Positions 11,145 to 63,336 of a DNA stretch of 64,000 nucleotides are shown piece after piece (the stretch's first letter is position 1; the number at the start of each line of letters is the position of its first letter). The notes beneath the pieces are model-generated. The model was given only the letters and a program-made list of their open reading frames with translations. It ran no database searches and was not told the DNA's origin. The position numbers were made by a program, and so were the translations under genes. Origin of the DNA: Bacillales bacterium UBA3789 (GTDB lineage: Bacteria > Bacillota_I > Bacilli_A > RF39 > UBA660); assembly GCA_002369415.1 (NCBI GenBank), contig DFEZ01000002.1, forward strand, positions 30,158 through 94,157, read 5' to 3'.

Positions 11145-12293
11145 TTATTCCTCAACATATTGTTTTGCTACCATATAAAAGATTATATTGGCTATTATTT
11201 GTTGTTCTTGTTCTGTTGCTTTTCCATTAGAATGTCCCGTTTGAATAAAGGCATTATTTCCGTACGTAGATAAATATATTTTGTTGGCTGGTATGTCAGA
11301 TTCCATATTTGGACCTGAAAATGTTATCCAAACATCTCCATTAGCAACTTGTCCATATACATGACTTGTAGGAATCCTAAGTTCTTCTCCTTCTTTTTCA
11401 ATATCATATGGGTATTTTGTAAATACTCCACTCTTTTGAATTTTTACTTTATCAGATGATTTATAGTTTCTTACTCCACTATTTAATGTTAAATTTACAA
11501 ATCCAGCTAAAGTATTAAAATTAACATGACTTCCACATCCATTTGCAGTAATTGTATCATGTCCAAATATTGCTGCTCCACCATTCATTAAATATTTACT
11601 CATTTCTTCTGCTGCTTTTGCAGATAAATCTTTACTTGCATAACAGTCCCAAAATCCAAATACTATTTCATCATAATTCCAATTTCCAGATGTTCCAATA
11701 TAAGATTCTGGATTAGCATTAAAGTCTGATAATGCTACTGGTGTAACTTTGATTATTCCCTTTCCGTATGTATCCATCCAAGTTTTTAAATTGTTTCCTG
11801 CTTCTTTTGGATAAACATTTAATACTTTAATCTCTTTTAGTTTATCTTTTATTTCTTCTATATCATATGGTTGTGCTTTACAATACTTATCTATATGTTT
11901 TTCTTTTGAAGGAAATTCATATGTATAGTTATAATTTGTACAACATACTGCGACTGTATAATTATTTTCATCTAATTCAACATCGTTAGATCCTTTAGTT
12001 GTTGTAACATTTACTTTACCTGTACACTCTTCTCCTCTTGATCCTGGATCTTGTAGGGATGATAAAAATCCACTACTAAATAATGTTTCAAAGTCTATTT
12101 CTGTTACGGCAGGATGTTCCATTATATATTCTTCTGCTGCTTGTGATGCAGACTTTGCCATTGTATCATAACCATCTTTTTTAGCTTTCTCTTGATACAC
12201 TGAATATGCTTGTAATCCAAGACCAAATAATATTCCAAGAATTGCTATTACGGCTAATAATTCTACTAAAGAAAATCCTTTATTATTTTTCAT
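11145..12293 (-). CDS. Large (382 aa) type IV pilin-like protein with a class III (prepilin peptidase) signal. Paralog 1.
   Basis: MKNNKG^FSLVELLAVIAILGILFGLG has Gly at -1, Phe at +1 and Glu at +5. Shares ~100 N-terminal residues and a CCTNYNYTY(E/S)FPS motif with the adjacent paralog; the C-terminal half differs. Confidence 0.7.
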   Translation of the reverse strand: MKNNKGFSLVELLAVIAILGILFGLGLQAYSVYQEKAKKDGYDTMAKSASQAAEEYIMEHPAVTEIDFETLFSSGFLSSLQDPGSRGEECTGKVNVTTTKGSNDVELDENNYTVAVCCTNYNYTYEFPSKEKHIDKYCKAQPYDIEEIKDKLKEIKVLNVYPKEAGNNLKTWMDTYGKGIIKVTPVALSDFNANPESYIGTSGNWNYDEIVFGFWDCYASKDLSAKAAEEMSKYLMNGGAAIFGHDTITANGCGSHVNFNTLAGFVNLTLNSGVRNYKSSDKVKIQKSGVFTKYPYDIEKEGEELRIPTSHVYGQVANGDVWITFSGPNMESDIPANKIYLSTYGNNAFIQTGHSNGKATEQEQQIIANIIFYMVAKQYVEE

Positions 12294-12312: not shown

Positions 12313-12346
12313 TATCAAAAAAAAGAGTCTTGTTGTAGACTCTTTA
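12313..12346 (-). terminator. Rho-independent terminator after pilin paralog 2, duplicated together with the gene.
   Basis: AAGAGTCT-TGTTGT-AGACTCTT followed by T8 in the minus-strand sense. The distal arm overlaps the stop codon. Confidence 0.55.
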
Positions 12347-13381
12347 ATGAACTGCTCCACTATATGTTTCTGTCATTTGAATGCATGTTCTTTGACATCC
12401 ATCTTCGGCATTTGGAGTTCCAGCATCTGATTTTCTAACTACTCTGTTTTCAAAGTTACCACCATCATGGAACCATGAACCATCTGGTCTAAAATCTGTA
12501 TATGCTGTTGATTTTCCTCTATAAAATTTATATCCATGGAAACTAATTTCAGTTGCTCCATTTTTAAATTGACCTTGCCAACAAACGTGATCTACGTATG
12601 AATTGAAATATGATGGATCATCTGATTCACATGCTGCATGACCATCACTATTTTCTAGGTACTTTATTCTCATAGTATGATGATCTGTTGATACAACTGA
12701 TGATGAACAGAATTTATTTGATGTCTTACTATATGTACAAGCACATACTGCATGGTTATACTTATATCTTCTACATGGAAGATTTGGGTCTCCTCCAGGA
12801 GTATTTGCATCATAGCATCCTCCATATCTACCATTTGAACCTTTAGTACATATTTTATCAATATAGTCCATTGTATATATTCCTTTTTTAACAGTCTTTG
12901 TGTTACCTTCAGCACAGTTTGCACTATTAGTCTCAATTAAATTATCTACATTTGCTTCTGCTTGACATCCATTTTTATTTTGTAATTTATTTCCTGATGG
13001 GAATGAATATGTATAATTATAATTTGTACAACATATTGATACAACATATTCATTTTGATCTAATTCTCTAGCTGCAGTTCCTTCTATTGTACTTACTGTA
13101 ACTGTTCCAGTACAATTATTTCCTTTATCACCAGGGTCTGCTATTGATGATAAGTATCCAGAATTATATAAAGTATCAAAATTCATACTTGATGCTGCTG
13201 GATGATCCATCTTATATTCTTCCATTGCTTCTGTTGCAGATTTTGCCATTGTATCATAGCCTTGTTTTTTTGCTTTTTCTTTATATGTTGAATAAGCCTG
13301 AATACCCAATCCAAATAATATTCCTAATATTGCTATTACGGCAAGTAATTCAACTAATGAAAATCCTTTGTTATTTTTCAT
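12344..13381 (-). CDS. Large (345 aa) type IV pilin-like protein, paralog 2, with a Cys-rich (~20 Cys) divergent C-terminal domain.
   Basis: Same class III signal as paralog 1 (MKNNKGFSLVELLAVIAILGILFGLGIQAYSTYKEKAKKQGYDTMAKSA). The conserved ~300 nt of 5' coding sequence and the RBS (GGTGATTATATG) are near-identical at the DNA level to paralog 1. Confidence 0.7.
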   Translation of the reverse strand: MKNNKGFSLVELLAVIAILGILFGLGIQAYSTYKEKAKKQGYDTMAKSATEAMEEYKMDHPAASSMNFDTLYNSGYLSSIADPGDKGNNCTGTVTVSTIEGTAARELDQNEYVVSICCTNYNYTYSFPSGNKLQNKNGCQAEANVDNLIETNSANCAEGNTKTVKKGIYTMDYIDKICTKGSNGRYGGCYDANTPGGDPNLPCRRYKYNHAVCACTYSKTSNKFCSSSVVSTDHHTMRIKYLENSDGHAACESDDPSYFNSYVDHVCWQGQFKNGATEISFHGYKFYRGKSTAYTDFRPDGSWFHDGGNFENRVVRKSDAGTPNAEDGCQRTCIQMTETYSGAVH

Positions 13382-15236: not shown

Positions 15237-17459
15237 TTATCTACTATGTGAGATATTGTCAATATTTTCTTTTGTAATTGCTACTCTATATTTATTAAGT
15301 TCATCTATTAAGATATCTCTTCTTACATATAGACCTTTAGTTAATTCTATACCTTTGAACACTCCTCTATTTCCAGTATATTGTTGTTCTAATTCTTCAT
15401 AACTATCGAAAGATGTGTCTTTATATTCTTTACCGTAACGTAGAGCTCCTTCACTTCTACAAGTTGCCATTATATTATTAATAACATCATAGAAGTTTAA
15501 GTATTCACCTTCATCATTAACGAATGCGAAGTTAGAATCTTCTCCATATTGTTCTTCAATACCATGAGCTAAGATTCCTACATATTCACTTAAGTTAACG
15601 TAGTATCCACTTTCTATATTACTTTCACTATTTTCAATTACTTTTTTACCTGCTAGATTAATATCTTCATGTTCATATCCGTAAATATTAATTCTACCAG
15701 TTCTTGGTTCTCTAATAACAGCTAAACCATTCATTTGATTAATTAAATCAGTATTAATATATGTAATCTTAATTCCTGACATATAATTTGATTTATCATC
15801 TAAATATGACATTTCATCTAGATCTATATCATCATCATTATCTGGTCCATTAGGATTATCTGGATTATTTGGACCGCCTGGATTTCCACCACCTAAATTA
15901 TTAAAGTTGAAATCTCTATTATTATCTTTGTCATCATCATTTTGATTATTATCATCAGTGTTGTTATCAACTGGATTATTATCATTAGTTGTATCAAATG
16001 GTTTATCATTATTATTTATATTCATTTGTTCTAGATTTAATTCAATTACTCTTGCCATAGTTTGTGCAAAGTAATCAACTATTCTTTCGTCTTGTTCATC
16101 TAATAATAATCTAATATCTTCTTCAGATAGGAATGGATTTACTCCTTCGAATCTAGGAATTGAAATGGTATCTCCATTTCTTAATTTGACTGCTAATAAA
16201 CGATAGTACTCTTCAAGAGTAATTCCTCTTTCATTAATATATCTCATTAGTAATCTAATATATGCTTCACGAACAGCATTTTCTAACTCTTCGTCTTCTT
16301 TTTCAGGTTTCTTTTCTTCCATTTGTTCTAGATTTAATTCAATTACTCTAGTCATGGCATTTGCGAAATATTCAACGATTCTATCTTCATCAGAATCAAG
16401 TAATCTATTAATATCATCTTGTGTTAGGAATGGATTCTTTCTTTCGAATTCAGGTACTCTTGATAAGTCTCCACTTAGTAAGCTTTCTCCTAACATTGTA
16501 AAATAATCATTTAATGTCATACCATTATCTTTAATATATTCCATTAAAGCATTAACATAAGATTGTCTTGCTGATAAGTTTTCTTCTTCAACTAAGTTAT
16601 CTTGTTCTTCTTGCTTTCTAATCTTTTCTTTTAAATGGTTTAGATATTCTAATACATCTTCTCTTGTTAATGAGTCAGTGAAGTCATCTTCTCCTCTAGC
16701 TAATAAATAAACGAAATCTCTTGGTTCTACCTCTGATATAATTTGATCTATGGCAGCTTCTGTTATTTCAGCTGGTAAGAATATATAACATCTTGATCCT
16801 TCTAACATTAATGTAGTTAAACCATTATCTGCAGCTTCAACTGATCTTTGTACTGGCCCAACATCAGTAACTATATTAACTCCAAAAGAGTCTTGTGCAA
16901 CAAAGTGAATTCTATCTGAATGGTGATTAGTAGTTCCATCAAAGATATCTTCTACTTTTACACCATCTTGGTCGATCATGACAATTCCTCTATTGAATCT
17001 ATAAACAACTCCATCTAATGAGAATAACCAGCCGATTCTATCACTTCTATTTTGATCATCTTGAGCATTAATTTCATCTAAGGTTACTGGAGCAACCCTT
17101 GCTGGTCCAGCTGATAAATATTCAGGGGAGTTAATTTCATATGTATATACTGGTCCATCTGGTGTTTGATCAACTTTAACTAGTTTTGGTCCATCAATAT
17201 TAACTTTCTCAACAGTTGCAGGTCCTTCTTTTTCTTCTGGTGCTGCAGCTTCTAATACACTTTTCTTGTAATCAATTTGTTCTGATTGATATTTTTTAAG
17301 ATCTTCAAGTGTATTAAATACTGGAGTTTTATGGAATAATACTTTATCAGTATCATCTATTTCTACAGCAGTAAAATATCCTGATTTCATCATATTTTCT
17401 TTTAATTCTTTAGAATCCTCATATATTTCATCATAGTTTTCAAAATCGTTATATGGCAT
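15237..17459 (-). CDS. Large (740 aa) soluble protein of unknown function.
- It has an internal tandem duplication of a ~90-aa module.
- It also has an N/D/P/G-rich low-complexity segment.
   Basis: Repeat A: ...YVNALMEYIKDNGMTLNDYFTMLGESLLSGDLSRVPEFERKNPFLTQDDINRLLDSDEDRIVEYFANAMTRVIELNLEQM. Repeat B: ...YIRLLMRYINERGITLEEYYRLLAVKLRNGDTISIPRFEGVNPFLSEEDIRLLLDEQDERIVDYFAQTMARVIELNLEQM. The DNA repeat has a ~300-bp period (about 16022 and 16322). Low-complexity stretch DNNPVDNNTDDNNQNDDDKDNNRDFNFNNLGGGNPGGPNNPDNPNGPDNDDD. Confidence 0.6.
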   Translation of the reverse strand: MPYNDFENYDEIYEDSKELKENMMKSGYFTAVEIDDTDKVLFHKTPVFNTLEDLKKYQSEQIDYKKSVLEAAAPEEKEGPATVEKVNIDGPKLVKVDQTPDGPVYTYEINSPEYLSAGPARVAPVTLDEINAQDDQNRSDRIGWLFSLDGVVYRFNRGIVMIDQDGVKVEDIFDGTTNHHSDRIHFVAQDSFGVNIVTDVGPVQRSVEAADNGLTTLMLEGSRCYIFLPAEITEAAIDQIISEVEPRDFVYLLARGEDDFTDSLTREDVLEYLNHLKEKIRKQEEQDNLVEEENLSARQSYVNALMEYIKDNGMTLNDYFTMLGESLLSGDLSRVPEFERKNPFLTQDDINRLLDSDEDRIVEYFANAMTRVIELNLEQMEEKKPEKEDEELENAVREAYIRLLMRYINERGITLEEYYRLLAVKLRNGDTISIPRFEGVNPFLSEEDIRLLLDEQDERIVDYFAQTMARVIELNLEQMNINNNDKPFDTTNDNNPVDNNTDDNNQNDDDKDNNRDFNFNNLGGGNPGGPNNPDNPNGPDNDDDIDLDEMSYLDDKSNYMSGIKITYINTDLINQMNGLAVIREPRTGRINIYGYEHEDINLAGKKVIENSESNIESGYYVNLSEYVGILAHGIEEQYGEDSNFAFVNDEGEYLNFYDVINNIMATCRSEGALRYGKEYKDTSFDSYEELEQQYTGNRGVFKGIELTKGLYVRRDILIDELNKYRVAITKENIDNISHSR

Positions 17460-35601: not shown

Positions 35602-36453
35602 TTAATAACCTTTTTGATAATTACTTGAATAAGTACCATATGTAGATTCAACAGTTCCATAATTATCTCTAAGTACACCGTAAATTGTTTCATCATCTAT
35701 TAAGTATTCTTGTCTTTCTGTTTTTAATCCACCATTGATATCTAATACTTTAGTATCAATATAATGATACTTTCTATTTGGATCTAATAATGAATATTCT
35801 GCATCAAAGTTTTCTGGTGTTGATGTAAAATTACTTACAAATTCTGGGTCAAACTCTAATGCTTCAAATAATCCTTCTCTATTTACAGTTCTTCTTGATT
35901 CTATCGTTGTTTCATCACCAATAAAGAATACCATGTTAGTTCCATAAGTATCATATAAATTATCATCATTTACAATGTCTACTCTAGTTCCATTTACGAT
36001 ATCATAACCACTTCTGTAGATTACTTTTCCATCTACTATAAAATCATTGTAGTTATATAATTCTGAATTAGTTACATTACTCCAACCAACTCTATTTCTT
36101 ACTAAGTAGATTCCAGCATCTTCCATTTCAATACTGTTTGCTCCTGTTGCTTGTGATAATAAGCTTATAAATTCACTTTTTGTATAAGATGAATCCGAAA
36201 AGGTTTCTACTTCATCAGCAACTGTAGTTGTTGTAGCTTCTTCAGTTGTTGTTTCAGTTGTTTCAGTTGTTTCTGGTTGAATTACTGTAGTTTCTTCTGT
36301 TTTTTCTTTCTCTGGTTCTTCAGTTGATGTTTGTGTAGTATGTTCTCTATCTGGTCTAGTAAAATATCCATTATTAATAGAGCCAATAACTGATCCTACT
36401 AAAACACATCCTGCAACTATTATAGCAACTCCTGTTCCTCTTAATTTTGACAT
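35602..36453 (-). CDS. Membrane-anchored extracellular protein with a Thr/Glu-rich linker.
   Basis: N-terminal TM anchor (VAIIVAGCVLVGSVIGSI), then TEEPEKEKTEETTVIQPETTETTETTTEEATTTT, then a ~190-aa C-terminal domain. Driven by the strong cassette promoter. Confidence 0.55.
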   Translation of the reverse strand: MSKLRGTGVAIIVAGCVLVGSVIGSINNGYFTRPDREHTTQTSTEEPEKEKTEETTVIQPETTETTETTTEEATTTTVADEVETFSDSSYTKSEFISLLSQATGANSIEMEDAGIYLVRNRVGWSNVTNSELYNYNDFIVDGKVIYRSGYDIVNGTRVDIVNDDNLYDTYGTNMVFFIGDETTIESRRTVNREGLFEALEFDPEFVSNFTSTPENFDAEYSLLDPNRKYHYIDTKVLDINGGLKTERQEYLIDDETIYGVLRDNYGTVESTYGTYSSNYQKGY

Positions 36454-37421: not shown

Positions 37422-38261
37422 TTATTTTTTATACATATTATGTAAGTCTGTTTTTTCTTTATGTTCTTTGCTACCTTCAGTAGCTTCTTCTTTTCTAATT
37501 TTATCTGATTTATTATCTTTCTTAGGTGGTTCTGTTGGAGGATTTTCTCTTAAATCTTTTTCTCTTTTGTTTTTTAATCTCTTATTAATATAAACATATT
37601 CTTGTCTTACATCTTCTCCATCCATATTTTGATAAGCTGATGTAAATAAGAATTTATAAATAAATAATACAGCTAATAAGATTCCACAAAAAGTTAATAT
37701 TTGAATTAAACTTTCTGCTTCTGGACCTATTTGAGTATTTTTACCTACACCAATTTCTTCTATAGTTTGTCCAATATATTCATCTTTTCCAGTATTATGT
37801 CTACAATTTATATTTTCACCTAATACTGAAATATATTTTACTTCACTTAGTCTTTTTCCTTTTCCTAAGTATTCATTTGATACTTCAATAATGAATGGTG
37901 TTTCTCCCTTAGCCTTAATTATATGTACTGTATCTGAAGTTTCTTCTCCCATAGAAGTACAATAATTAATTGTACCTATATTCTTCTTATTCTTATCAAA
38001 TAAAGCTACTGATATAGATACAGGTAAATCTTCATCAGAAATATTTTTAATATTACCAAAAATTAAATAATTGTTTGGATTTGTAATATCTTTTATACCT
38101 TTTGTTTTGTAATAAAATGATTGATAACTAAAGTGATCTGTTACTATAGTTGTTTCTGTATTGATAGGAATTAATTCCCTTAATTCATAGTTAGCAGCAT
38201 TTACTTTATTAATCATAAACATTACTAATATAATTACTAATACCTTTATTATTCTTTTCAT
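37422..38261 (-). CDS. Hypothetical secreted protein with a C-terminal TM anchor.
   Basis: Signal peptide MKRIIKVLVIILVMFMINKVNA. Later TM ILTFCGILLAVLFIYKFLF and a K/E-rich tail. Start moved to MKRIIKV to avoid a 17-nt overlap. Confidence 0.5.
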   Translation of the reverse strand: MKRIIKVLVIILVMFMINKVNAANYELRELIPINTETTIVTDHFSYQSFYYKTKGIKDITNPNNYLIFGNIKNISDEDLPVSISVALFDKNKKNIGTINYCTSMGEETSDTVHIIKAKGETPFIIEVSNEYLGKGKRLSEVKYISVLGENINCRHNTGKDEYIGQTIEEIGVGKNTQIGPEAESLIQILTFCGILLAVLFIYKFLFTSAYQNMDGEDVRQEYVYINKRLKNKREKDLRENPPTEPPKKDNKSDKIRKEEATEGSKEHKEKTDLHNMYKK

Positions 38262-38262
38262 A

Positions 38263-38811
38263 TCATCTATTCCTTTCAATATACTTTTCTATATCAAGCC
38301 AATTTGTTAAATAGTCGTCTTTTAAATCGTATCTTTCTCTATCATCAAATAAGATACATTTTATTCCTTCAGAAGTAATTTTCTTATAATTATATGGATC
38401 ATCATCTATCATTAAATCTATTTCATATCTTTTACAAACATCTGCTTTTGTTTCTCCATAGGCTGATAATATAACAGCATCTACTTCTATTCCATTTTTT
38501 TGTAACCAATTATCTATTATCTGAAACATATTTTTTACTGTAGGAACTGTACTATTAGAACGCGCTGTTATTATATATATTTCATTACCTTTACTTCTTA
38601 GTCTTTTTAATACATTTTGAACATTTCTTTTTACTTCTACATTTGTATAAATATCTTCTAAATAAATACTAAAGAAACCTTGTTTTAACATTTCATCATT
38701 CATGATATCAAGTGGATTCATATTAATTGCTTCTGAATATTTTTCGATTCTATCATGAACTATTTCAGTTGTTCTACAAATAGTATCATCTAAATCAACC
38801 CCTATTCTCAC
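38263..38811 (-). CDS. HAD-superfamily hydrolase (5'(3')-deoxyribonucleotidase-like).
   Basis: Motif I IGVDLDDTI (DxDxT). Motif II ITARS. Motif IV DLMIDDDP. 182 aa. Confidence 0.6.
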   Translation of the reverse strand: MRIGVDLDDTICRTTEIVHDRIEKYSEAINMNPLDIMNDEMLKQGFFSIYLEDIYTNVEVKRNVQNVLKRLRSKGNEIYIITARSNSTVPTVKNMFQIIDNWLQKNGIEVDAVILSAYGETKADVCKRYEIDLMIDDDPYNYKKITSEGIKCILFDDRERYDLKDDYLTNWLDIEKYIERNR

Positions 38812-39914: not shown

Positions 39915-39948
39915 CAAATGAAAAAGGTACCTATTGATACCTTTTTAT
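39915..39948 (-). terminator. Rho-independent terminator after the 636-aa pilin-like gene.
   Basis: AAAAGGTA-CCTATTGA-TACCTTTT plus a T-run (minus-strand sense). Overlaps the stop codon. Confidence 0.45.
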
Positions 39949-41855
39949 CCTCCCATTACATTAGGTTTATATGTTATCATTACAAAGCCATCACCAGAAC
40001 TCAATATTTCTCCTGTTAATTGATTGCTTTCTAATGATGATAATGTAGATGAGTGATTGTATAGTTCAGAGTTATTTTCAATACGGAAAGAAGATCCGTC
40101 ATAATTTAAATCTTGTAAAACAGTATGAACAGCTTCTCCATCATCACTTTGCATACAATTGTAGCAATATAATGCTGAATCCCATATTTTTATTCTGTTT
40201 GTTCCATTATATAAGTAACTTGAACCTCCACCAGATCCAGTGTTTTCACTACCTGAGGCAAATCCTGCTCCGAATCCTGCTCCTGCTCCTGGAACTGGGA
40301 ATTCTGAAGTATAATATCTTGTTGGTACTTCGGCAAAAAGTGGTTGATAATAATCAAAAATGTTTCCACCATAACCACAACCAGGGAACCTCCAATTTGT
40401 AGGCCACCATTCATTTAGTTCTGTTGACCAAACTCCTTCTTTTTGACCACTTTCACCAGTGACTCCACCGGCACTTCCACCTTTTCCTTTTATAACTCCA
40501 TTAGAATAATATGATCCTCCGCCTCCACCGGCAATAATCATAAAATGATCCCAATATTCATCATTTTGTATTACTCTTTCAAGATCTTTAAGTGTACTTG
40601 TGGAAACTATAGTTGCTCCTCCTCCGGAACCAACTGTACCAGTTGTTAAATTTCTTTGTATAGCTGGACCTCCACCGATTTTTCCGCCTTCTATTTGAGC
40701 ATCATCGGTAGTAGCCATTTTTCCTGCGCCACCAACATTTACATATAAAATAGTTCCCTTTTGAGCTGATACTAAAGCTTCAGCATATCCTCCATAACCC
40801 ATTTCAGTTGGGCTATCGGACATTGCTCCTCCAGCAGCTCCCCAAACTTGTATTAAATAATATCCTGTTGTAGGAACTTCAAAATATTGATTGTATCCTG
40901 GAATATATGTAAATCTTGTTTTGGCAGGTTCCCAAACTGCATATAACGTAGTGTCTCTATTAAATCTTTGATATGAATCAACACTATAATCTATATTTGT
41001 TTCTCCTTCTCCACGAACTGTCCAACCCACAAGTGAACATCCATCTTTATGAATACCATTTTCAGATGTTGCATTTGGTAGTCTTACATTTTCACCAGAG
41101 TTTACTGTAACTGGGTTAACTGTACCAGTTGCTCCTTCACCTAATTCAAATCTAACTGTATATGTATCTACTTCAGGTGGTAAGATATCAAGACCTGAAG
41201 ACATATCTGATAATTTTGATGTAAAATCCATTGGTGCAACTATATTTATACCATATCTTGTGGATAATTCTGGATGATAGAATCCAATATAGATTGATAA
41301 AACATTGTCATCTGTTATTTCAATTAAAATATTATTTATTGATAAGTCTTTTTGTTCATGACATTCTTCTGTTTTTGTTTTACATGAAACAGGTTTACCG
41401 GCATCATTTATTTTTACATAAGAACTTCCTAAATCAGGTAATTCGTAATCAGTAATTTCTCTATCAGGATTTCCATATTGAATTTTAAATTCATCATCAA
41501 GTGTTGGATTTCCATCAGGGTGTGATGCTGACTGTGTGAATCTTTGTGAAACTATTAAACGTCTTCTAGTTCCATCTGATAAGTTACAATCAACTTGGTG
41601 AGTAACTTTTTTAGTTGTACTATCAACAGTTCTTTTATAAGTAGCATGAGTTAGACCAATTGTTATAAAGTCATCTTGAATATCTTTAGTTAAAATATTT
41701 TTATAACTATAAATTCTTGTTTTATAATTCTCAGCCATTCTTTTATCATTGTAAGCAGAAATTGTTGAGAATAAAGACATTGCTATTACAACAACAAGTA
41801 CAAAACATACTAATACTTCTATTATTGTAATTCCTTTATTATTAAGTTTTTTCAT
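39945..41855 (-). CDS. Giant (636 aa) type IV pseudopilin-like protein. It carries a Listeria-Bacteroides (Flg_new) repeat and a C-terminal ALK/LTK-type glycine-rich domain.
   Basis: Class III signal MKKLNNKG^ITIIEVLVCFVLVVVIAMSLF, with Glu at +5. Middle part YTVRFELGEGATGTVNPVTVNSGENVRLPNATSENGIHKDGCSLVGWTVRG…TTLYAVWEP has the Flg_new pattern. C-terminal part FTYIPGYNQYFEVPTTGYYLIQVWGAAGGAMSDSPTEMGYGGYAEALVSAQKGTILYVNVGGAGK…GGGGGSYYSNG…GKGGSAGGVTG matches the Gly_rich (PF12810-like) pattern. The start codon overlaps the stop of the upstream pseudopilin gene. Confidence 0.7.
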   Translation of the reverse strand: MKKLNNKGITIIEVLVCFVLVVVIAMSLFSTISAYNDKRMAENYKTRIYSYKNILTKDIQDDFITIGLTHATYKRTVDSTTKKVTHQVDCNLSDGTRRRLIVSQRFTQSASHPDGNPTLDDEFKIQYGNPDREITDYELPDLGSSYVKINDAGKPVSCKTKTEECHEQKDLSINNILIEITDDNVLSIYIGFYHPELSTRYGINIVAPMDFTSKLSDMSSGLDILPPEVDTYTVRFELGEGATGTVNPVTVNSGENVRLPNATSENGIHKDGCSLVGWTVRGEGETNIDYSVDSYQRFNRDTTLYAVWEPAKTRFTYIPGYNQYFEVPTTGYYLIQVWGAAGGAMSDSPTEMGYGGYAEALVSAQKGTILYVNVGGAGKMATTDDAQIEGGKIGGGPAIQRNLTTGTVGSGGGATIVSTSTLKDLERVIQNDEYWDHFMIIAGGGGGSYYSNGVIKGKGGSAGGVTGESGQKEGVWSTELNEWWPTNWRFPGCGYGGNIFDYYQPLFAEVPTRYYTSEFPVPGAGAGFGAGFASGSENTGSGGGSSYLYNGTNRIKIWDSALYCYNCMQSDDGEAVHTVLQDLNYDGSSFRIENNSELYNHSSTLSSLESNQLTGEILSSGDGFVMITYKPNVMGG

Positions 41856-42634
41856 TATCTATTCACCTCCATTGTGGCAAATGAATAGAAATTATTTCCA
41901 TCCTTTTTATGTTTTATTTGTATTATTACTCTATATCTAGAATAATTAAGTGACTGAGTTGTATAATCTGGTAAAGTTAAAATATAATCTTGAAATGCAG
42001 ATGAAAAAACTTTTCCTGAATATACTTTTTCACAATATGTTAGGACTTTGTTTTTCTTATCTTCATCAGCTTCTACGATGTTTACTCTTTTATTTACACA
42101 AGTATCAAATTTATTTGTAATACACTCTTCATAGCCATCAGGGTCATTTCTATACTGATAACACATTTCAATTTCTCTATCTAGTGGAGTTCCATCTTTT
42201 GGATGCTTATTTGTCTTTACAGTTGTTTTAAAATCTGGTGTTACTCCACCTATTCTATAGTTAGTTATATATATTTCACAGGCATTTCCTGTATCTTTTT
42301 CACAGTTTTGTATTTCTAGTGAATCAACTAGATTTATACATATTTGACGTTGATTATCAACTGATTCAATATCACTACATTCAAATCTCATATAACCATA
42401 CTCTTGCATAAAGTCTTTTTTGGCATCAGATGGTTTAAATGCTGCTGATTCAACTAGTTTTTTAATCCAAAAAACGGCATATTTACTATCTATGTCGTCA
42501 TAATTTTCTCTTTTTTCATATTCACCAATAAGAGGATAAAAATTACTGTACACCATTGTAAACAAAACCATTAAAAAAACAGTTACAATAAGTGTTTCCG
42601 CAAGAACGAAGCCTTTATTACTTAATTTTTTCAT
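41855..42634 (-). CDS. Cys-rich type IV pseudopilin-like protein (259 aa).
   Basis: Class III signal MKKLSNKG^FVLAETLIVTVFLMVLFTMVYS (Gly at -1, Phe at +1, Glu at +5). About 11 Cys in the mature part. Translationally coupled to the 636-aa gene. Confidence 0.65.
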   Translation of the reverse strand: MKKLSNKGFVLAETLIVTVFLMVLFTMVYSNFYPLIGEYEKRENYDDIDSKYAVFWIKKLVESAAFKPSDAKKDFMQEYGYMRFECSDIESVDNQRQICINLVDSLEIQNCEKDTGNACEIYITNYRIGGVTPDFKTTVKTNKHPKDGTPLDREIEMCYQYRNDPDGYEECITNKFDTCVNKRVNIVEADEDKKNKVLTYCEKVYSGKVFSSAFQDYILTLPDYTTQSLNYSRYRVIIQIKHKKDGNNFYSFATMEVNR

Positions 42635-42769
42635 TTTTCATTCTCACTCTCCTTGATATTCTTATGAAATTATTATATAATACTTTATAGTAAAATACCA
42701 TAGAATACTATCAATAATTTTTTTATTTGACTATTAAAAATGGTATTTAAAAAAAGATAAGGGGTTGAA

Positions 42770-44827
42770 ATGATGGTCCAATTTGACGTTAAGCGAATTC
42801 AAAGTGGAACTGAAAGTTTCATGGTATCATTTGATTTTACTAAGACACCAGTAACTCAAATAGCCGACTACATTATCATTGCTGCTTCTAAATACAATGC
42901 ATCAGATATTCATTTCGATCCTAGAGAAGAAGGAATGATGGTTAGATTTAGAATTGACGGTGATTGTCAAGACTATACTTTTGTTCCTAAAGCATATGAA
43001 AAGAATTTAACTACAAGATTAAAATTAATGGCAAACATGAACATTACTGAATCAAGATTACCTCAAGATGGTGCTATCAAAGGTAACTTTGGTGATCAGT
43101 ATCTAGATATGCGTGTGTCTGCACTACCACTTAATGAGGGTGAAAAAATCGTTATCCGTATCTTAGACTATTCAAGAAGTTTACAAGGTATTGATACTTT
43201 AGGATTCCACCCAGATAATCTTGCTAAAATAAAAAGAATGATGGGTATTCCAAATGGAATTATTCTTACTACAGGAGCTACTGGTTCCGGAAAATCTACA
43301 ACTACTTATTCAATTTTACAAGGATTAAATAAACCAGAAACAAATATAATTACTGTAGAAGACCCAATAGAAATGAACATTGAAGGTATAAATCAAGTTC
43401 AAGTTAATTCTGAAATCGGAATGACTTTCGCTGCTGCCCTTCGTTCTATCTTACGTCAGGACCCTAACGTTATACTTATCGGAGAGATTCGTGACTCTGA
43501 GACTGCACAAATTGCTGTTCGTGCTTCTATCACAGGTCACTTAGTTTTATCTACAATCCATACCAACAACGCTTTAGCTACAGTTGAGCGTCTACTTGAT
43601 ATGGATGTTGAAAGATACTTACTTGCAACAGCTCTTACTGGAATCATTTCTCAAAGACTTGCTAAGATGCTTTGTGAAGATTGTAGATTCCAAAGAGAAA
43701 CTACTCAATATGAAAAGAAAATATTTAAGAAATATTTAAATTTAGATGTAGCACATGTATGGGATGCAAATCCTAAAGGTTGTGAACACTGCCGTAGAGG
43801 ATATCATGGACGTATTGCTTTCCATGAAGTACTTGAATTAGATGATAATGTTAGAAGTGCATTAAGTAATGATAAACTCGAAAAGAAAGAACTTGCTAAA
43901 ATGGTTTATTCAGGAAAAACTATTACAATGTTACAAGATGCCTTAATTAAATGTTTAGATGGAAAAACTTCATTTGAAGAAGTTTATAAGAGTATCGAAA
44001 TTGAAAATGAAGATGATGACAACTACGAAAATGAACTAGATCAAGAAATAATGGATTCTATTCCAGAAGAGGCTTATGAAAAAGAATCAGATGATGATTT
44101 ACTTGGAACTCCAACTAATAATGAAATATCTAGTGTCGTAGTTCCACCTGCATTCACTGCAGAAGACTTTTTAGATAATGCACCTGGTGAAGAAAATGCT
44201 AAAAATGTAGAACAAGCAAATGCTACTGGAGCAGTTACTGTTAATAATCAAGTTCCAGAAACAGCTCCTGTTACTCAAAATGAAATTGCTAATCAAACAG
44301 TAAATTCTGTTTATGCAGCTACTCAAACTAATGCAAGTGTTATGAATAACCAAGCATATACAGTAGCACCAACACAACCAGTTCAAGCTACTCAACAATC
44401 TCAAGCAACACAACCTGTTCAAGTTGTTCAAACTACTGTACCAACTACTGTTCCATATACTGTACCTGCTACTGTTCCTGCAACAGTTCCAGTTACACAA
44501 CCTGTTACAGTACAAGCTGCAATACCAGTTGTTAATACTACACCAGTTCAGGCTACTCAACCAGTTCAACAAGTACAACAACCAGTAATGCCTGTTCAAC
44601 AACCTGTTCAAGCTACTCAGCCAGTTCAAGTTGTTCAAGCTACTGTTCCTGCAACAGCTGCACCTGTTCAAGCATTACAAGATATTGTAACTGTTCAAGC
44701 AACAACTCCTCCAACTGAGGCAGCTACAGTTCCAATTCAACAAGCATATATACCAAAGACAGAAGTAAACGCTAGCAACTTGGAAAAACTTGATAGTACA
44801 AGCAATCCACTAATGCCAAATATATAA
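42770..44827 (+). CDS. Type II/IV secretion-family ATPase (ComGA/PilB/GspE-like, no N1 domain) fused to a ~280-aa P/V/Q/T-rich low-complexity C-terminal tail.
   Basis: Walker A GATGSGKSTTTY. Asp box (…ILDYSRSLQGIDTLGF…). His box LVLSTIHTNNA. Tetracysteine CEDC…CEHCRRGYHGRIAFHEV. Tail: QATQPVQVVQTTVPTTVPYTVPATVPATVPVTQPVTVQAAIPVVNTTPVQATQPVQQVQQPVMPVQQPVQATQPVQVVQATVPATAAPVQ… Divergently arranged relative to the pseudopilin pair. Confidence 0.85.
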   Translation: MMVQFDVKRIQSGTESFMVSFDFTKTPVTQIADYIIIAASKYNASDIHFDPREEGMMVRFRIDGDCQDYTFVPKAYEKNLTTRLKLMANMNITESRLPQDGAIKGNFGDQYLDMRVSALPLNEGEKIVIRILDYSRSLQGIDTLGFHPDNLAKIKRMMGIPNGIILTTGATGSGKSTTTYSILQGLNKPETNIITVEDPIEMNIEGINQVQVNSEIGMTFAAALRSILRQDPNVILIGEIRDSETAQIAVRASITGHLVLSTIHTNNALATVERLLDMDVERYLLATALTGIISQRLAKMLCEDCRFQRETTQYEKKIFKKYLNLDVAHVWDANPKGCEHCRRGYHGRIAFHEVLELDDNVRSALSNDKLEKKELAKMVYSGKTITMLQDALIKCLDGKTSFEEVYKSIEIENEDDDNYENELDQEIMDSIPEEAYEKESDDDLLGTPTNNEISSVVVPPAFTAEDFLDNAPGEENAKNVEQANATGAVTVNNQVPETAPVTQNEIANQTVNSVYAATQTNASVMNNQAYTVAPTQPVQATQQSQATQPVQVVQTTVPTTVPYTVPATVPATVPVTQPVTVQAAIPVVNTTPVQATQPVQQVQQPVMPVQQPVQATQPVQVVQATVPATAAPVQALQDIVTVQATTPPTEAATVPIQQAYIPKTEVNASNLEKLDSTSNPLMPNI

Positions 44828-44831
44828 AATA

Positions 44832-44860
44832 AAAAAGACCAATTAATGGTCTTTTTTTTA
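44832..44860. terminator. Bidirectional terminator between the ATPase gene and the tmk-like gene.
   Basis: GACCA-ATTAA-TGGTC hairpin flanked by A6 and T8. Confidence 0.55.
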
Positions 44861-62685: not shown

Positions 62686-63336
62686 TTATTGAATTGGATT
62701 ATTAACAACTTGTTGTACTGGTTGTTGAACAACTGGTGCTTGTTGTTGAATTTGTGGTACTTGGACAACCTGTTGTACTACTTGTTGTTGTGGTGTTTGA
62801 ACTGCAGCCTGATTATGAATCAATTGTTGTGCATTTTGAGGTGATATTGCAGTTTGAATCCCCATTTGGATTCTTTTCTTTTCTTTTTTATCATCTTTTT
62901 TTAATACCTTTTTGAACATTCCTTCTACACCTTTCATAAGGTATCCTGCAGCAACAACACTTCCTGCAACTATAAATGATGATTTTACTCCCATTGCAAA
63001 TCCTCTATTGTACTCTGCACTTGTTTTTGGTTCATTTGATGATGTTGGATTTACAATAACATAATCATTTGCCACTACACTAGCATCAGGTTTTTTCTCT
63101 TCTTGTACCTCTGCTATTTTATTAATTGTATCTACACTTATTTTTATATCATCAATCATTTTATCGATTGCTTTTTGTGTATTTGATCCTAAATCTTTTA
63201 TATTTAGAACATCAAAGTTGATAAAGTTTGATCCTCTAGCATTTGCTACCATTTGATATGCAGATGCTAAGTCTTGATCTACCCCATTTAGTTTTAACTT
63301 AGCTGATCCTAATATTTCAAGTGCTTCATCAACCAC
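62686..63336 (-). CDS. Hypothetical protein with a central TM helix and a Q/V/P-rich C-terminal tail. Start uncertain (GTG at 63336 or an internal ATG).
   Basis: TM FIVAGSVVAAGYLMKGVEGMF. Tail QAAVQTPQQQVVQQVVQVPQIQQQAPVVQQPVQQVVNNPIQ. No in-frame ATG with an SD near the ORF start. Confidence 0.45.
   Translation of the reverse strand: MVDEALEILGSAKLKLNGVDQDLASAYQMVANARGSNFINFDVLNIKDLGSNTQKAIDKMIDDIKISVDTINKIAEVQEEKKPDASVVANDYVIVNPTSSNEPKTSAEYNRGFAMGVKSSFIVAGSVVAAGYLMKGVEGMFKKVLKKDDKKEKKRIQMGIQTAISPQNAQQLIHNQAAVQTPQQQVVQQVVQVPQIQQQAPVVQQPVQQVVNNPIQ

Follow-up and report, generated by a model that had tools for sequence, protein, structure and literature searches.

A type IV filament assembly ATPase of uncultured gut Bacilli that lacks the N1D domain and carries a long, predicted disordered C-terminal tail

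We have analysed a stretch of 64,000 nucleotides from the genome of Bacillales bacterium UBA3789, a member of the RF39 lineage (contig DFEZ01000002.1, positions 30,158 to 94,157; hereafter the window), and in particular a gene at positions 42770..44827 on its plus strand. The gene is a complete coding sequence of 685 amino acids, with an ATG start and a TAA stop, and encodes a type IV filament assembly ATPase followed by a C-terminal tail that is predicted to be disordered, an assignment drawn from the open reading frame (ORF) listing, Pfam, the orthologs and AlphaFold2. The motor itself is ordinary. What is new is its architecture, which lacks the N-terminal N1D domain, is universal in a widespread gut lineage, and has a C-terminal tail far larger than the intrinsically disordered regions (IDRs) of PilU and CpaF. 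The tail is genuine. Its presence is conserved, it evolves under purifying selection, it is modular in its construction and it is predicted to be disordered. It is probably functional, and our preferred reading, which we hold with a probability of about 0.45, is that it acts as a flexible tether bearing short docking or regulatory motifs and functionally replaces N1D; both partner binding and the substitution for N1D are steps that we infer.

The ATPase core, comprising the N2D and CTD domains, spans residues 26–406 (42845..43987, plus strand) according to Pfam, phmmer, Foldseek and AlphaFold2. The Pfam T2SSE family (PF00437) matches this region with 383.3 bits against a gathering cut-off of 24.9 (E=1.2e-114) and covers profile positions 6–369 of 370. 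The Walker A motif G169ATGSGKS (residues 169–176; 43274–43297), the Asp box I194TVEDPIE (194–201), the Walker B motif I235LIGEIRD (235–242) and the His box G256HLVLSTIH (256–264) all fall in invariant or nearly invariant columns of the ortholog alignment. A tetracysteine motif in the CTD that binds zinc is typical of the extension-type members of the superfamily; here it reads C302xxC...C338xxC (43673–43792), with C302, C305, C338 and C341 invariant across 83 sequences. In phmmer searches against PDB sequences GspE was matched at 2.8e-97 and PilB at 3e-93. The AlphaFold2 model, built from the 83-sequence alignment, shows the bilobed N2D and CTD fold with a pLDDT of about 90 or higher over residues 20–410, and its nearest structures in Foldseek are Geobacter PilB and Thermus PilF, at 41–43% identity and a TMt of 0.89–0.93; the best PilB matches are 5tsg and 5tsh, with a TMt of 0.93 and an rmsd of 2.1 for 5tsg_B. 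Every superfamily feature that we tested is thus present, which places the protein within the T2SSE superfamily. A preliminary description of this DNA, made from its letters alone, had placed residues 1 to about 400 in the GspE/PilB family with all of its motifs, and Pfam, phmmer, the motif positions and Foldseek agree with that placement.

Membership of the superfamily does not extend to any of its named equivalogs. The protein scores 433.7 against the PilB model TIGR02538 (cut-off 675.65), matching profile positions 178–560 only and leaving the N-terminal 177 unmatched, and 454.4 against the GspE model TIGR02533 (cut-off 630.25), matching positions 106–484 only. Both shortfalls arise because the N-terminal profile positions are missing. 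The ComGA model NF041000 gives 263.7 against a cut-off of 300, and its match is limited to residues 35–299. The N-terminal GSPII/N1D (MshEN-type) domain is absent: Pfam matches no domain ahead of the core, which starts at about residue 26, and the reading frame cannot be extended upstream to accommodate one, since 42770 is the first start codon following an in-frame stop. By the NCBI cut-offs the protein is therefore no PilB, GspE or ComGA equivalog; it represents a distinct architectural subfamily that works like an extension ATPase. The label ‘ComGA/PilB-like’ used in the preliminary description can be refined: PilB is the closest relative in structure, and the ComGA score, 264 against 300, lies below the cut-off.

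The solved chains of GspE, PilB and PilF end about 10 residues or less beyond the last matched position (495 of 500 in 4pht, 582 of 588 in 6olj and 558 of 566 in 3jc8), just as had been noted beforehand for such ATPases, which normally stop soon after the cysteine cluster. The window protein instead continues for 276 residues. To ask how general this is we sampled its relatives at three depths. Among the 120 best clusters at 90% identity in the protein collection, with cores 87–99% identical to the query, the tail is present in 120 of 120, at lengths of 103–349 aa. A species scan took one genome per GTDB species, 459 relatives in all; of the 80 best loci examined 65 held a complete ORF, and all 65 carry a tail of 83–969 aa (median 232), none being shorter than 83. 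The tail is thus conserved in presence over more than 180 orthologs from the two sets, while its length and composition vary; the preliminary description had proposed this comparison. Ortholog tails are poor in F, W, Y, C, H and M (together a median of 2.7%) and in R (0.4%). The relatives' records are uncultured metagenome-assembled genomes (MAGs) from gut and rumen (human, goat, sheep, yak, roe deer and rabbit), labelled by their depositors as Bacilli, Mollicutes, Tenericutes, Erysipelotrichaceae or ‘Mycoplasma sp. CAG:877’, and these labels resemble those of lineages reported to have reduced genomes.

For the most distant comparison, the core alone was run in a full HMMER search against 1.84 billion representatives at 50% identity, and the best 140 whole-core matches were classed. 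Twenty-three of these have no N-terminal domain, and 20 of the 23 carry low-complexity C-terminal tails of 96–991 aa, down to 42% core identity. The remaining 117 have a canonical N-terminal domain of 120–200 aa and mostly end at the core, a C-terminal extension being found in 24. Four of the 24 (P0136, P0140, P0148 and P0156; 49–61% core identity) have tails of lower complexity and look like members of the tailed clade; the other 20 extensions are mostly of ordinary complexity and include receiver-like domains, zinc ribbons and a second copy of the ATPase. Because the tail is found in 20 of the 23 matches without an N-terminal domain, and C-terminal extensions are rare and mostly folded among the 117 with N1D, a long and putatively disordered C-terminal tail accompanies the absence of N1D and defines a deep clade. 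The preliminary description was right to call the tail atypical, given that only 24 of the 117 nearest N-domain representatives are extended, mostly by folded domains; the matching loss of N1D was absent from that account and is added here. The tails of more distant members are rich in E/K, D/N or E/P/V, and a tip of acidic and aromatic residues closes many of these proteins (...DDDDDDDNFNYGNSYINNF, ...DDEDEDDFGYGEGYENSF, ...DYDDFSYDDSYKNDF; for example DDDDFxYGxxYxNxF), while others end in ...LDIDGELTALGED. Tails of 900–990 aa occur in some members of the clade (P0125–P0127 and L065), where they contain long, perfect, K/E/P-rich tandem repeats, such as a 27-aa unit KVTIKEEAFKVVPPKEEKKEEPK... 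present seven times, and share a ...LD(I/S)DG(E/D)L..LGED terminus, a terminal motif class other than that of the query.

The tail itself, residues 410–685, consists of 15% V, 13% T, 12% Q, 12% A and 11% P. It is modular rather than uniformly low in complexity, with an acidic segment carrying motifs, a hypervariable spacer and an end enriched in a further motif. In the tail alignment, the proximal part (residues 410–470; 43997..44179, plus strand) is a conserved acidic segment, and the net charge of residues 410–480 is about −22. Its motifs in the window protein are EIENEDDDNYENE (residues 410–422), SDDDLL (440–445) and PPAFTAEDF (459–467). The first of these, at the very start of the tail, hardly varies among close relatives, and 59 of 76 species-level orthologs have a recognisable form of it; the other two are kept, as SDDLL and PPAFTAADF, within a subclade of at least 88% core identity. 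The spacer (residues 471–655; 44180..44734, plus strand), delimited by composition, repeats, the AlphaFold2 model and indels, cannot be aligned outside close relatives. Over residues 481–655 it is 84% P/T/V/Q/A and contains neither K nor R, and the 60-aa window at residue 546, with 87% P/T/V/Q, has the lowest entropy among all ORFs of the 64 kb. Weak in-frame tandem repeats with periods of 12, 18 and 24 nt (69–82% matches) can be found in the spacer; a clean tandem-repeat array was considered as the nature of the tail and rejected, since only these weak arrays were found, in favour of compositional bias. The preliminary description, with its 280-residue low-complexity tail, was close in length and correct as to bias, and missed that residues 410–470 are a conserved acidic segment and not of low complexity.

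The last 30 residues (44735..44824, plus strand), ending ...NLEKLDSTSNPLMPNI, belong to a terminal motif class, ΦPKL(D/G)...PLxPxΦ, which emerged from a comparison of termini and a test of enrichment. Many orthologs end in IPKL, IPKLD/G, PLTPNV, PLIPTIK or PLVPEV. The pattern [ILVMFY]P[KR][ILVF] is found in the last 20 residues of 38 of 153 non-redundant tails, against 3.9 ± 1.6 expected from random internal windows of the same tails, and P[LI]xP[KTNEQS][ILVF] in 29 of the 153, against 0.9 ± 0.9, so the terminal motifs are enriched 10- to 30-fold over internal windows.

No Pfam or NCBIfam domain was matched beyond residue 412. AlphaFold2 gives residues 468–685 a pLDDT below 50 and no DSSP secondary structure; the sole two helices of the tail, at 420–429 and 464–467, are weak (pLDDT 56–67) and lie on conserved motifs. 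Apart from these two short helices, residues 410–685 are thus predicted to be disordered, as had been suspected from the letters alone. A transmembrane or membrane-targeting segment was also considered and rejected: the maximal 19-residue Kyte–Doolittle mean in the tail is 1.03, and by eye the C-terminus forms no amphipathic helix.

Selection was estimated by the Nei–Gojobori method on codon alignments of three sequences, namely the window gene and those of two close relatives, L081 and L082. The ratio dN/dS is 0.026–0.028 in the core (residues 1–409) and 0.21–0.34 over the whole tail; within the tail it is 0–0.21 in the proximal segment, 0.25–0.48 in the spacer and 0.14–0.15 in the last 30 residues (656–685). 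Every indel is a multiple of three in length, and such indels separate even strains with 99.5% identity in the core. The tail therefore appears to be under relaxed but purifying selection, weakest in the spacer, and the direction of this effect is clear.

The possibility that the long reading frame is an artefact, whether of faulty assembly, of a frameshift or of read-through that fused it to a gene downstream, is effectively refuted. Low-complexity DNA is in general liable to misassembly, and beyond that we found nothing in favour of an artefact. More than 180 assemblies, made independently in various studies and from various hosts, show the same architecture, as the preliminary description's rejection of a frameshift would lead one to expect. 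The neighbours of the gene in L081 and L082 match those in the window gene for gene, and their tails can be aligned with the window tail. The two other plus-strand frames across the tail DNA contain 12 and 26 stops, so the open frame is not due to chance, and the DNA shows coding periodicity: the GC content by codon position (GC1 0.64, GC2 0.41, GC3 0.08) fits the plus frame, and GC3 is as expected for coding sequence here. An antisense ORF of 166 aa at 44171..44671 (minus strand), with a nonsense-like translation rich in L, N, S, C and W, is ruled out as a gene by the same codon-position pattern; it is a mirror of low-complexity coding DNA, as had been said of it before. Downstream there is only a terminator, followed by a convergent gene for thymidylate kinase (tmk) in the window and in 53 related loci. 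The terminator is a hairpin of 11 base pairs at 44831..44857 (assigned to neither strand) with A and T runs on its flanks, which starts 4 nt past the TAA stop and looks like a bidirectional terminator common to the ATPase gene and tmk. On the other side of the gene, a Shine–Dalgarno-like AAGGGG (42759..42764, plus strand; read from the sequence) lies 5 nt 5′ of the ATG, and a promoter-like site (TTGATA, a 17-nt spacer and TATAAT; 42653..42681, plus strand) matches the consensus at 11 of 12 positions within the 135-bp divergent intergenic region. That region holds no more promoter-like matches than does shuffled sequence, and the site is therefore suggestive and no proof. Given the fixed synteny, the terminator, the promoter-like site and the ribosome-binding site, the tail forms the 3′ terminus of a gene complete in itself; the synteny, the terminator and the orthologs rule out both a frameshift and a fused neighbour. 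The tail is real and in frame. For annotators the rule that follows is that such long ORFs are real and that truncating them is unwarranted.

How might such a tail be used? Type IV filament extension ATPases are thought to dock via their N-terminal domain, which is poorly resolved and poorly understood. The N-terminal GSPII/N1D domain sets extension ATPases apart from retraction ATPases, and it probably contacts the stator protein PilM, as the N1E domain of GspE contacts GspL (PMC11656802). The gene product is the extension-type motor that assembles type IV filaments in a low-GC member of the Bacilli from the gut, as yet uncultured. In this lineage the motor is without the N1D/GSPII domain of canonical PilB and GspE and always has a long, acidic, proline-rich and presumably disordered C-terminal arm. 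On the tether reading, docking motifs would be placed at both ends of this arm: beside the core a cluster of acidic and aromatic residues (EIENEDDDNYENE, SDDLL and PPAFTAADF), and at the far end the ΦPKL / PLxPxΦ peptide. The spacer between them could drift freely in length and sequence as long as it stayed open, uncharged or acidic, unfolded and long enough. Going by the known PilB hexamer structures, six arms would leave the cytoplasmic face of the ring, and an arm of at least 80 aa should be able to reach around a ring some 6–7 nm tall. Their length would let the arms contact a partner on the membrane or in the cytoplasm, for instance a platform protein, an alignment protein or a regulator, and they could thereby recruit the motor, retain it or gate it, as N1D does elsewhere. 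The idea of a tether was raised in the preliminary description, and what we find in the sequences is consistent with it.

Several observations weigh against this reading. No binding partner of the tail was identified, and genes for PilC, PilM and PilD were not found among the scanned ORFs of the window. The SDDLL and FTAADF motifs are restricted to the subclade with at least 88% core identity. The terminal patterns were picked post hoc, after the termini had been viewed, and are present in about 20–40% of tails, which makes them an enrichment and not a strict signature. The dN/dS values come from three sequences only, with an uncertain alignment in the low-complexity part, and the spacer values of 0.25–0.48, together with the 10-fold range of lengths, would also fit a weak constraint on composition only. 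Finally, the Val-rich spacer lies on the ‘folded’ side of the charge–hydropathy (Uversky) plot; as this measure is ambiguous we did not use it as evidence of disorder, and for that reason the prediction rests on the AlphaFold pLDDT and the proline content.

The same constraint on composition is central to a different explanation, in which the tail is a tolerated expansion, driven by slippage, that has no sequence-specific role and is at most an entropic bristle or solubility brush on the cytoplasmic face of the hexamer, with selection acting only on composition and the open frame. The range of lengths from 83 to 969 aa, the lineage-dependent composition (P/T/V/Q, E/K-rich or D/N-rich), the weak repeats of 12, 18 and 24 nt, the in-frame indels between near-identical strains and a spacer dN/dS that is 10–18 times the core value all speak for it, and the similar Q/V/P tail of a second window protein hints at a lineage-wide tendency. 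However, in more than 180 orthologs the tail is never lost and never falls below 83 aa. Its dN/dS is well under 1, and conserved proximal motifs are followed, past the variable spacer, by an enriched terminal motif, so that the frame must hold throughout. We consider this explanation unlikely, though it deserves to be taken seriously.

Two further explanations assign the tail an active role of another kind. It could be an autoinhibitory or regulatory element, whose acidic proximal segment or terminal peptide folds onto the ATPase ring, at the pore or an inter-subunit interface, and gates ATP turnover or blocks the stacking of another ATPase. A conserved segment with a net charge of about −22 directly after the CTD, with two short helices of intermediate confidence within its conserved motifs, would suit this role, and a similar one has been suggested for the C-terminal IDR of Myxococcus xanthus PilU, where a longer IDR kills function and truncation restores it (PMC13584747). 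The AlphaFold monomer model nevertheless gives no confident docking of the segment (pLDDT 45–67), and the retention of a spacer of 100–900 aa and of the terminal motif is left unexplained; autoinhibition seems distinctly improbable. It is less probable still that the spacer, uncharged and rich in Val, Pro, Thr and Gln, causes the protein to self-associate or undergo phase separation and so gathers the motors at assembly sites, perhaps together with other proteins that bear tails of this kind. A spacer that is relatively hydrophobic, 84% P/T/V/Q/A and free of K and R resembles elastin-like sequences, and a membrane protein in the window (62686..63336) has a like Q/V/P tail that is conserved in its small family. 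On the other hand, elsewhere in the clade the tails bear a high density of charge (E/K-rich or D/N/E-rich) and would be expected to behave quite differently, and aromatic or arginine ‘stickers’ are missing (F+W+Y+C+H+M a median of 2.7%, R 0.4%).

Set beside PilB, GspE and PilF (PF00437; TIGR02538 and TIGR02533; PDB 5tsh, 5oiu and 4ksr), the window protein shares the N2D and CTD core, the motifs and the zinc site, at 40–43% identity and a TMt of up to 0.93, and here too pilin-like genes adjoin the ATPase gene; it differs in having no N1D/GSPII/MshEN domain and in its C-terminal tail of 276 aa, predicted to be disordered. With ComGA (NF041000) it has in common a monoderm Bacilli lineage, an ATPase without a domain of the N1D type and neighbouring pilin-like proteins that weakly resemble ComGC and ComGE. 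However, its full core, including the zinc-binding C-terminal subdomain, matches PilB and GspE better, and the gene lies outside any operon of the comG type, with the pilin genes dispersed. ComGA proteins are short, at about 350 aa, and are not known to have a long tail. Our search of the literature on ComGA C-terminal extensions and on RF39 with pili found nothing on this protein or on its architecture, and the only precedents that it yielded were the IDRs of PilU and CpaF.

M. xanthus PilU (MXAN_1995) is likewise a pilus motor of the PilT/VirB11 superfamily with a lineage-restricted, disordered C-terminal tail, although it is a retraction-type ATPase of a diderm, has a shorter tail (about 112 aa) and shows no coupling to the loss of an N-terminal domain. 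Lengthening of its 112-aa C-terminal IDR abolishes function, truncation restores it, and the IDR appears to be regulatory (PMC13584747). In Caulobacter crescentus the Tad pilus motor CpaF, likewise an ATPase of a type IV filament, has a terminal extension that is disordered. When this N-terminal IDR is truncated, pilus extension and retraction are reduced and ATPase activity is kept; the IDR occurs in only a subset of orthologs (PMC12019362). CpaF thus differs from the window protein in that its IDR is N-terminal, short (about 79 aa), part of another ATPase subfamily and absent from most orthologs, whereas the tail described here is universal. A parallel in layout is offered by FtsZ, with its C-terminal linker and conserved C-terminal peptide, and by SSB, with its disordered linker and acidic tip, both of which join a globular, oligomerising core through a linker of variable length and sequence to a short terminal docking peptide. 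Like theirs, the predicted unstructured tail of the ATPase clade is variable in length and sequence and conserved in presence; unlike theirs, which belong to unrelated families and functions, its terminal motif is only partly conserved and is a candidate docking peptide.

The ATPase gene is monocistronic, lying between a divergent pair of pilin-like genes and the convergent tmk, and no comGB follows it. The nearer of the pair (41855..42634, minus strand), placed by synteny, encodes a pilin-like protein of 259 aa with an N-terminal KGFVLAETL followed by a hydrophobic helix, and a homolog lies directly upstream of the ATPase gene in 79 of 82 related loci. The further gene (39945..41855, minus strand) encodes a modular pilin-like protein of 636 aa in which Pfam recognises an N_methyl motif, a Flg_new repeat and an ALK/LTK glycine-rich domain; it is kept beside the 259-aa gene, and so near the ATPase gene, in 75 related loci. 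The Listeria–Bacteroides repeat (Flg_new) and the PF12810 domain (E=1.8e-28) of this prepilin-type protein are an unusual cargo for a modular pilin. Altogether the window has four prepilin-type genes. The other two, at 11145..12293 and 12344..13381 (minus strand), lie between uvrC and mutL, distant from the ATPase gene. They encode paralogous type IV pilins that are unusually large (382 and 345 aa) and nearly identical at their N-termini (MKNNKGFSLVELLAVIAILGILFGLG). PilC, PilM, PilD and PilT, which would supply a platform, a peptidase and a retraction ATPase, were not seen among the 23 window ORFs scanned against Pfam. The genes for the filament machinery are therefore dispersed: instead of forming one operon, they are interspersed with housekeeping genes. 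The ATPase gene is also one of very few on the plus strand, the surrounding 64 kb being almost wholly minus-strand, and the cumulative GC skew falls steadily across the window.

Tails of biased composition may be a frequent feature of this proteome. The membrane protein at 62686..63336 (minus strand), 216 aa long and without a Pfam match, has one predicted transmembrane (TM) segment at about residues 113–135. This is followed by a stretch rich in Lys and then by a C-terminal tail of 55 aa, rich in Q/V/P (...VVQVPQIQQQAPVVQQPVQQVVNNPIQ), with a flavour like that of the ATPase spacer. In its 16 homologs, all of them closely related, a Q/V-rich tail is retained that terminates in ...NN(P/T/I)(V/I)Q, and one of them contains LPKL. 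This protein could be a partner of the ATPase or a sign of a lineage-wide ‘style’ of tail. A protein of 740 aa at 15237..17459 (minus strand), also without a Pfam match, has within it two copies of a helical module about 100 aa long (...NPFLTQDDINRLLDSDEDRIVEYFANAMTRVIELNLEQM... is found twice), besides a low-complexity stretch rich in D/N/G/P. Two membrane-anchored proteins, at 35602..36453 and 37422..38279 (both minus strand), have low-complexity segments as well, one having a T/E-rich stretch after an N-terminal TM segment and the other a K/E-rich C-terminal tail after its TM segment.

In conclusion, a clade of ATPases that is without N1D and always tailed provides a natural experiment on how a pilus motor is recruited or regulated. 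In the most far-reaching version, an order-level lineage of small-genome gut Bacilli would have exchanged the folded N-terminal docking domain of its motor for a disordered C-terminal arm bearing motifs, with recruitment and regulation operating via fly-casting peptides and not through a domain–domain interface, and the Q/V/P-tailed membrane protein at 62686..63336 might be a matching partner or part of a shared code of tail-mediated assembly; we regard this as speculative and doubtful as a whole. The clade is abundant and diverse in the gut metagenomes of humans, ruminants and rabbits, where attachment to partners or DNA uptake is likely to be central to its lifestyle.

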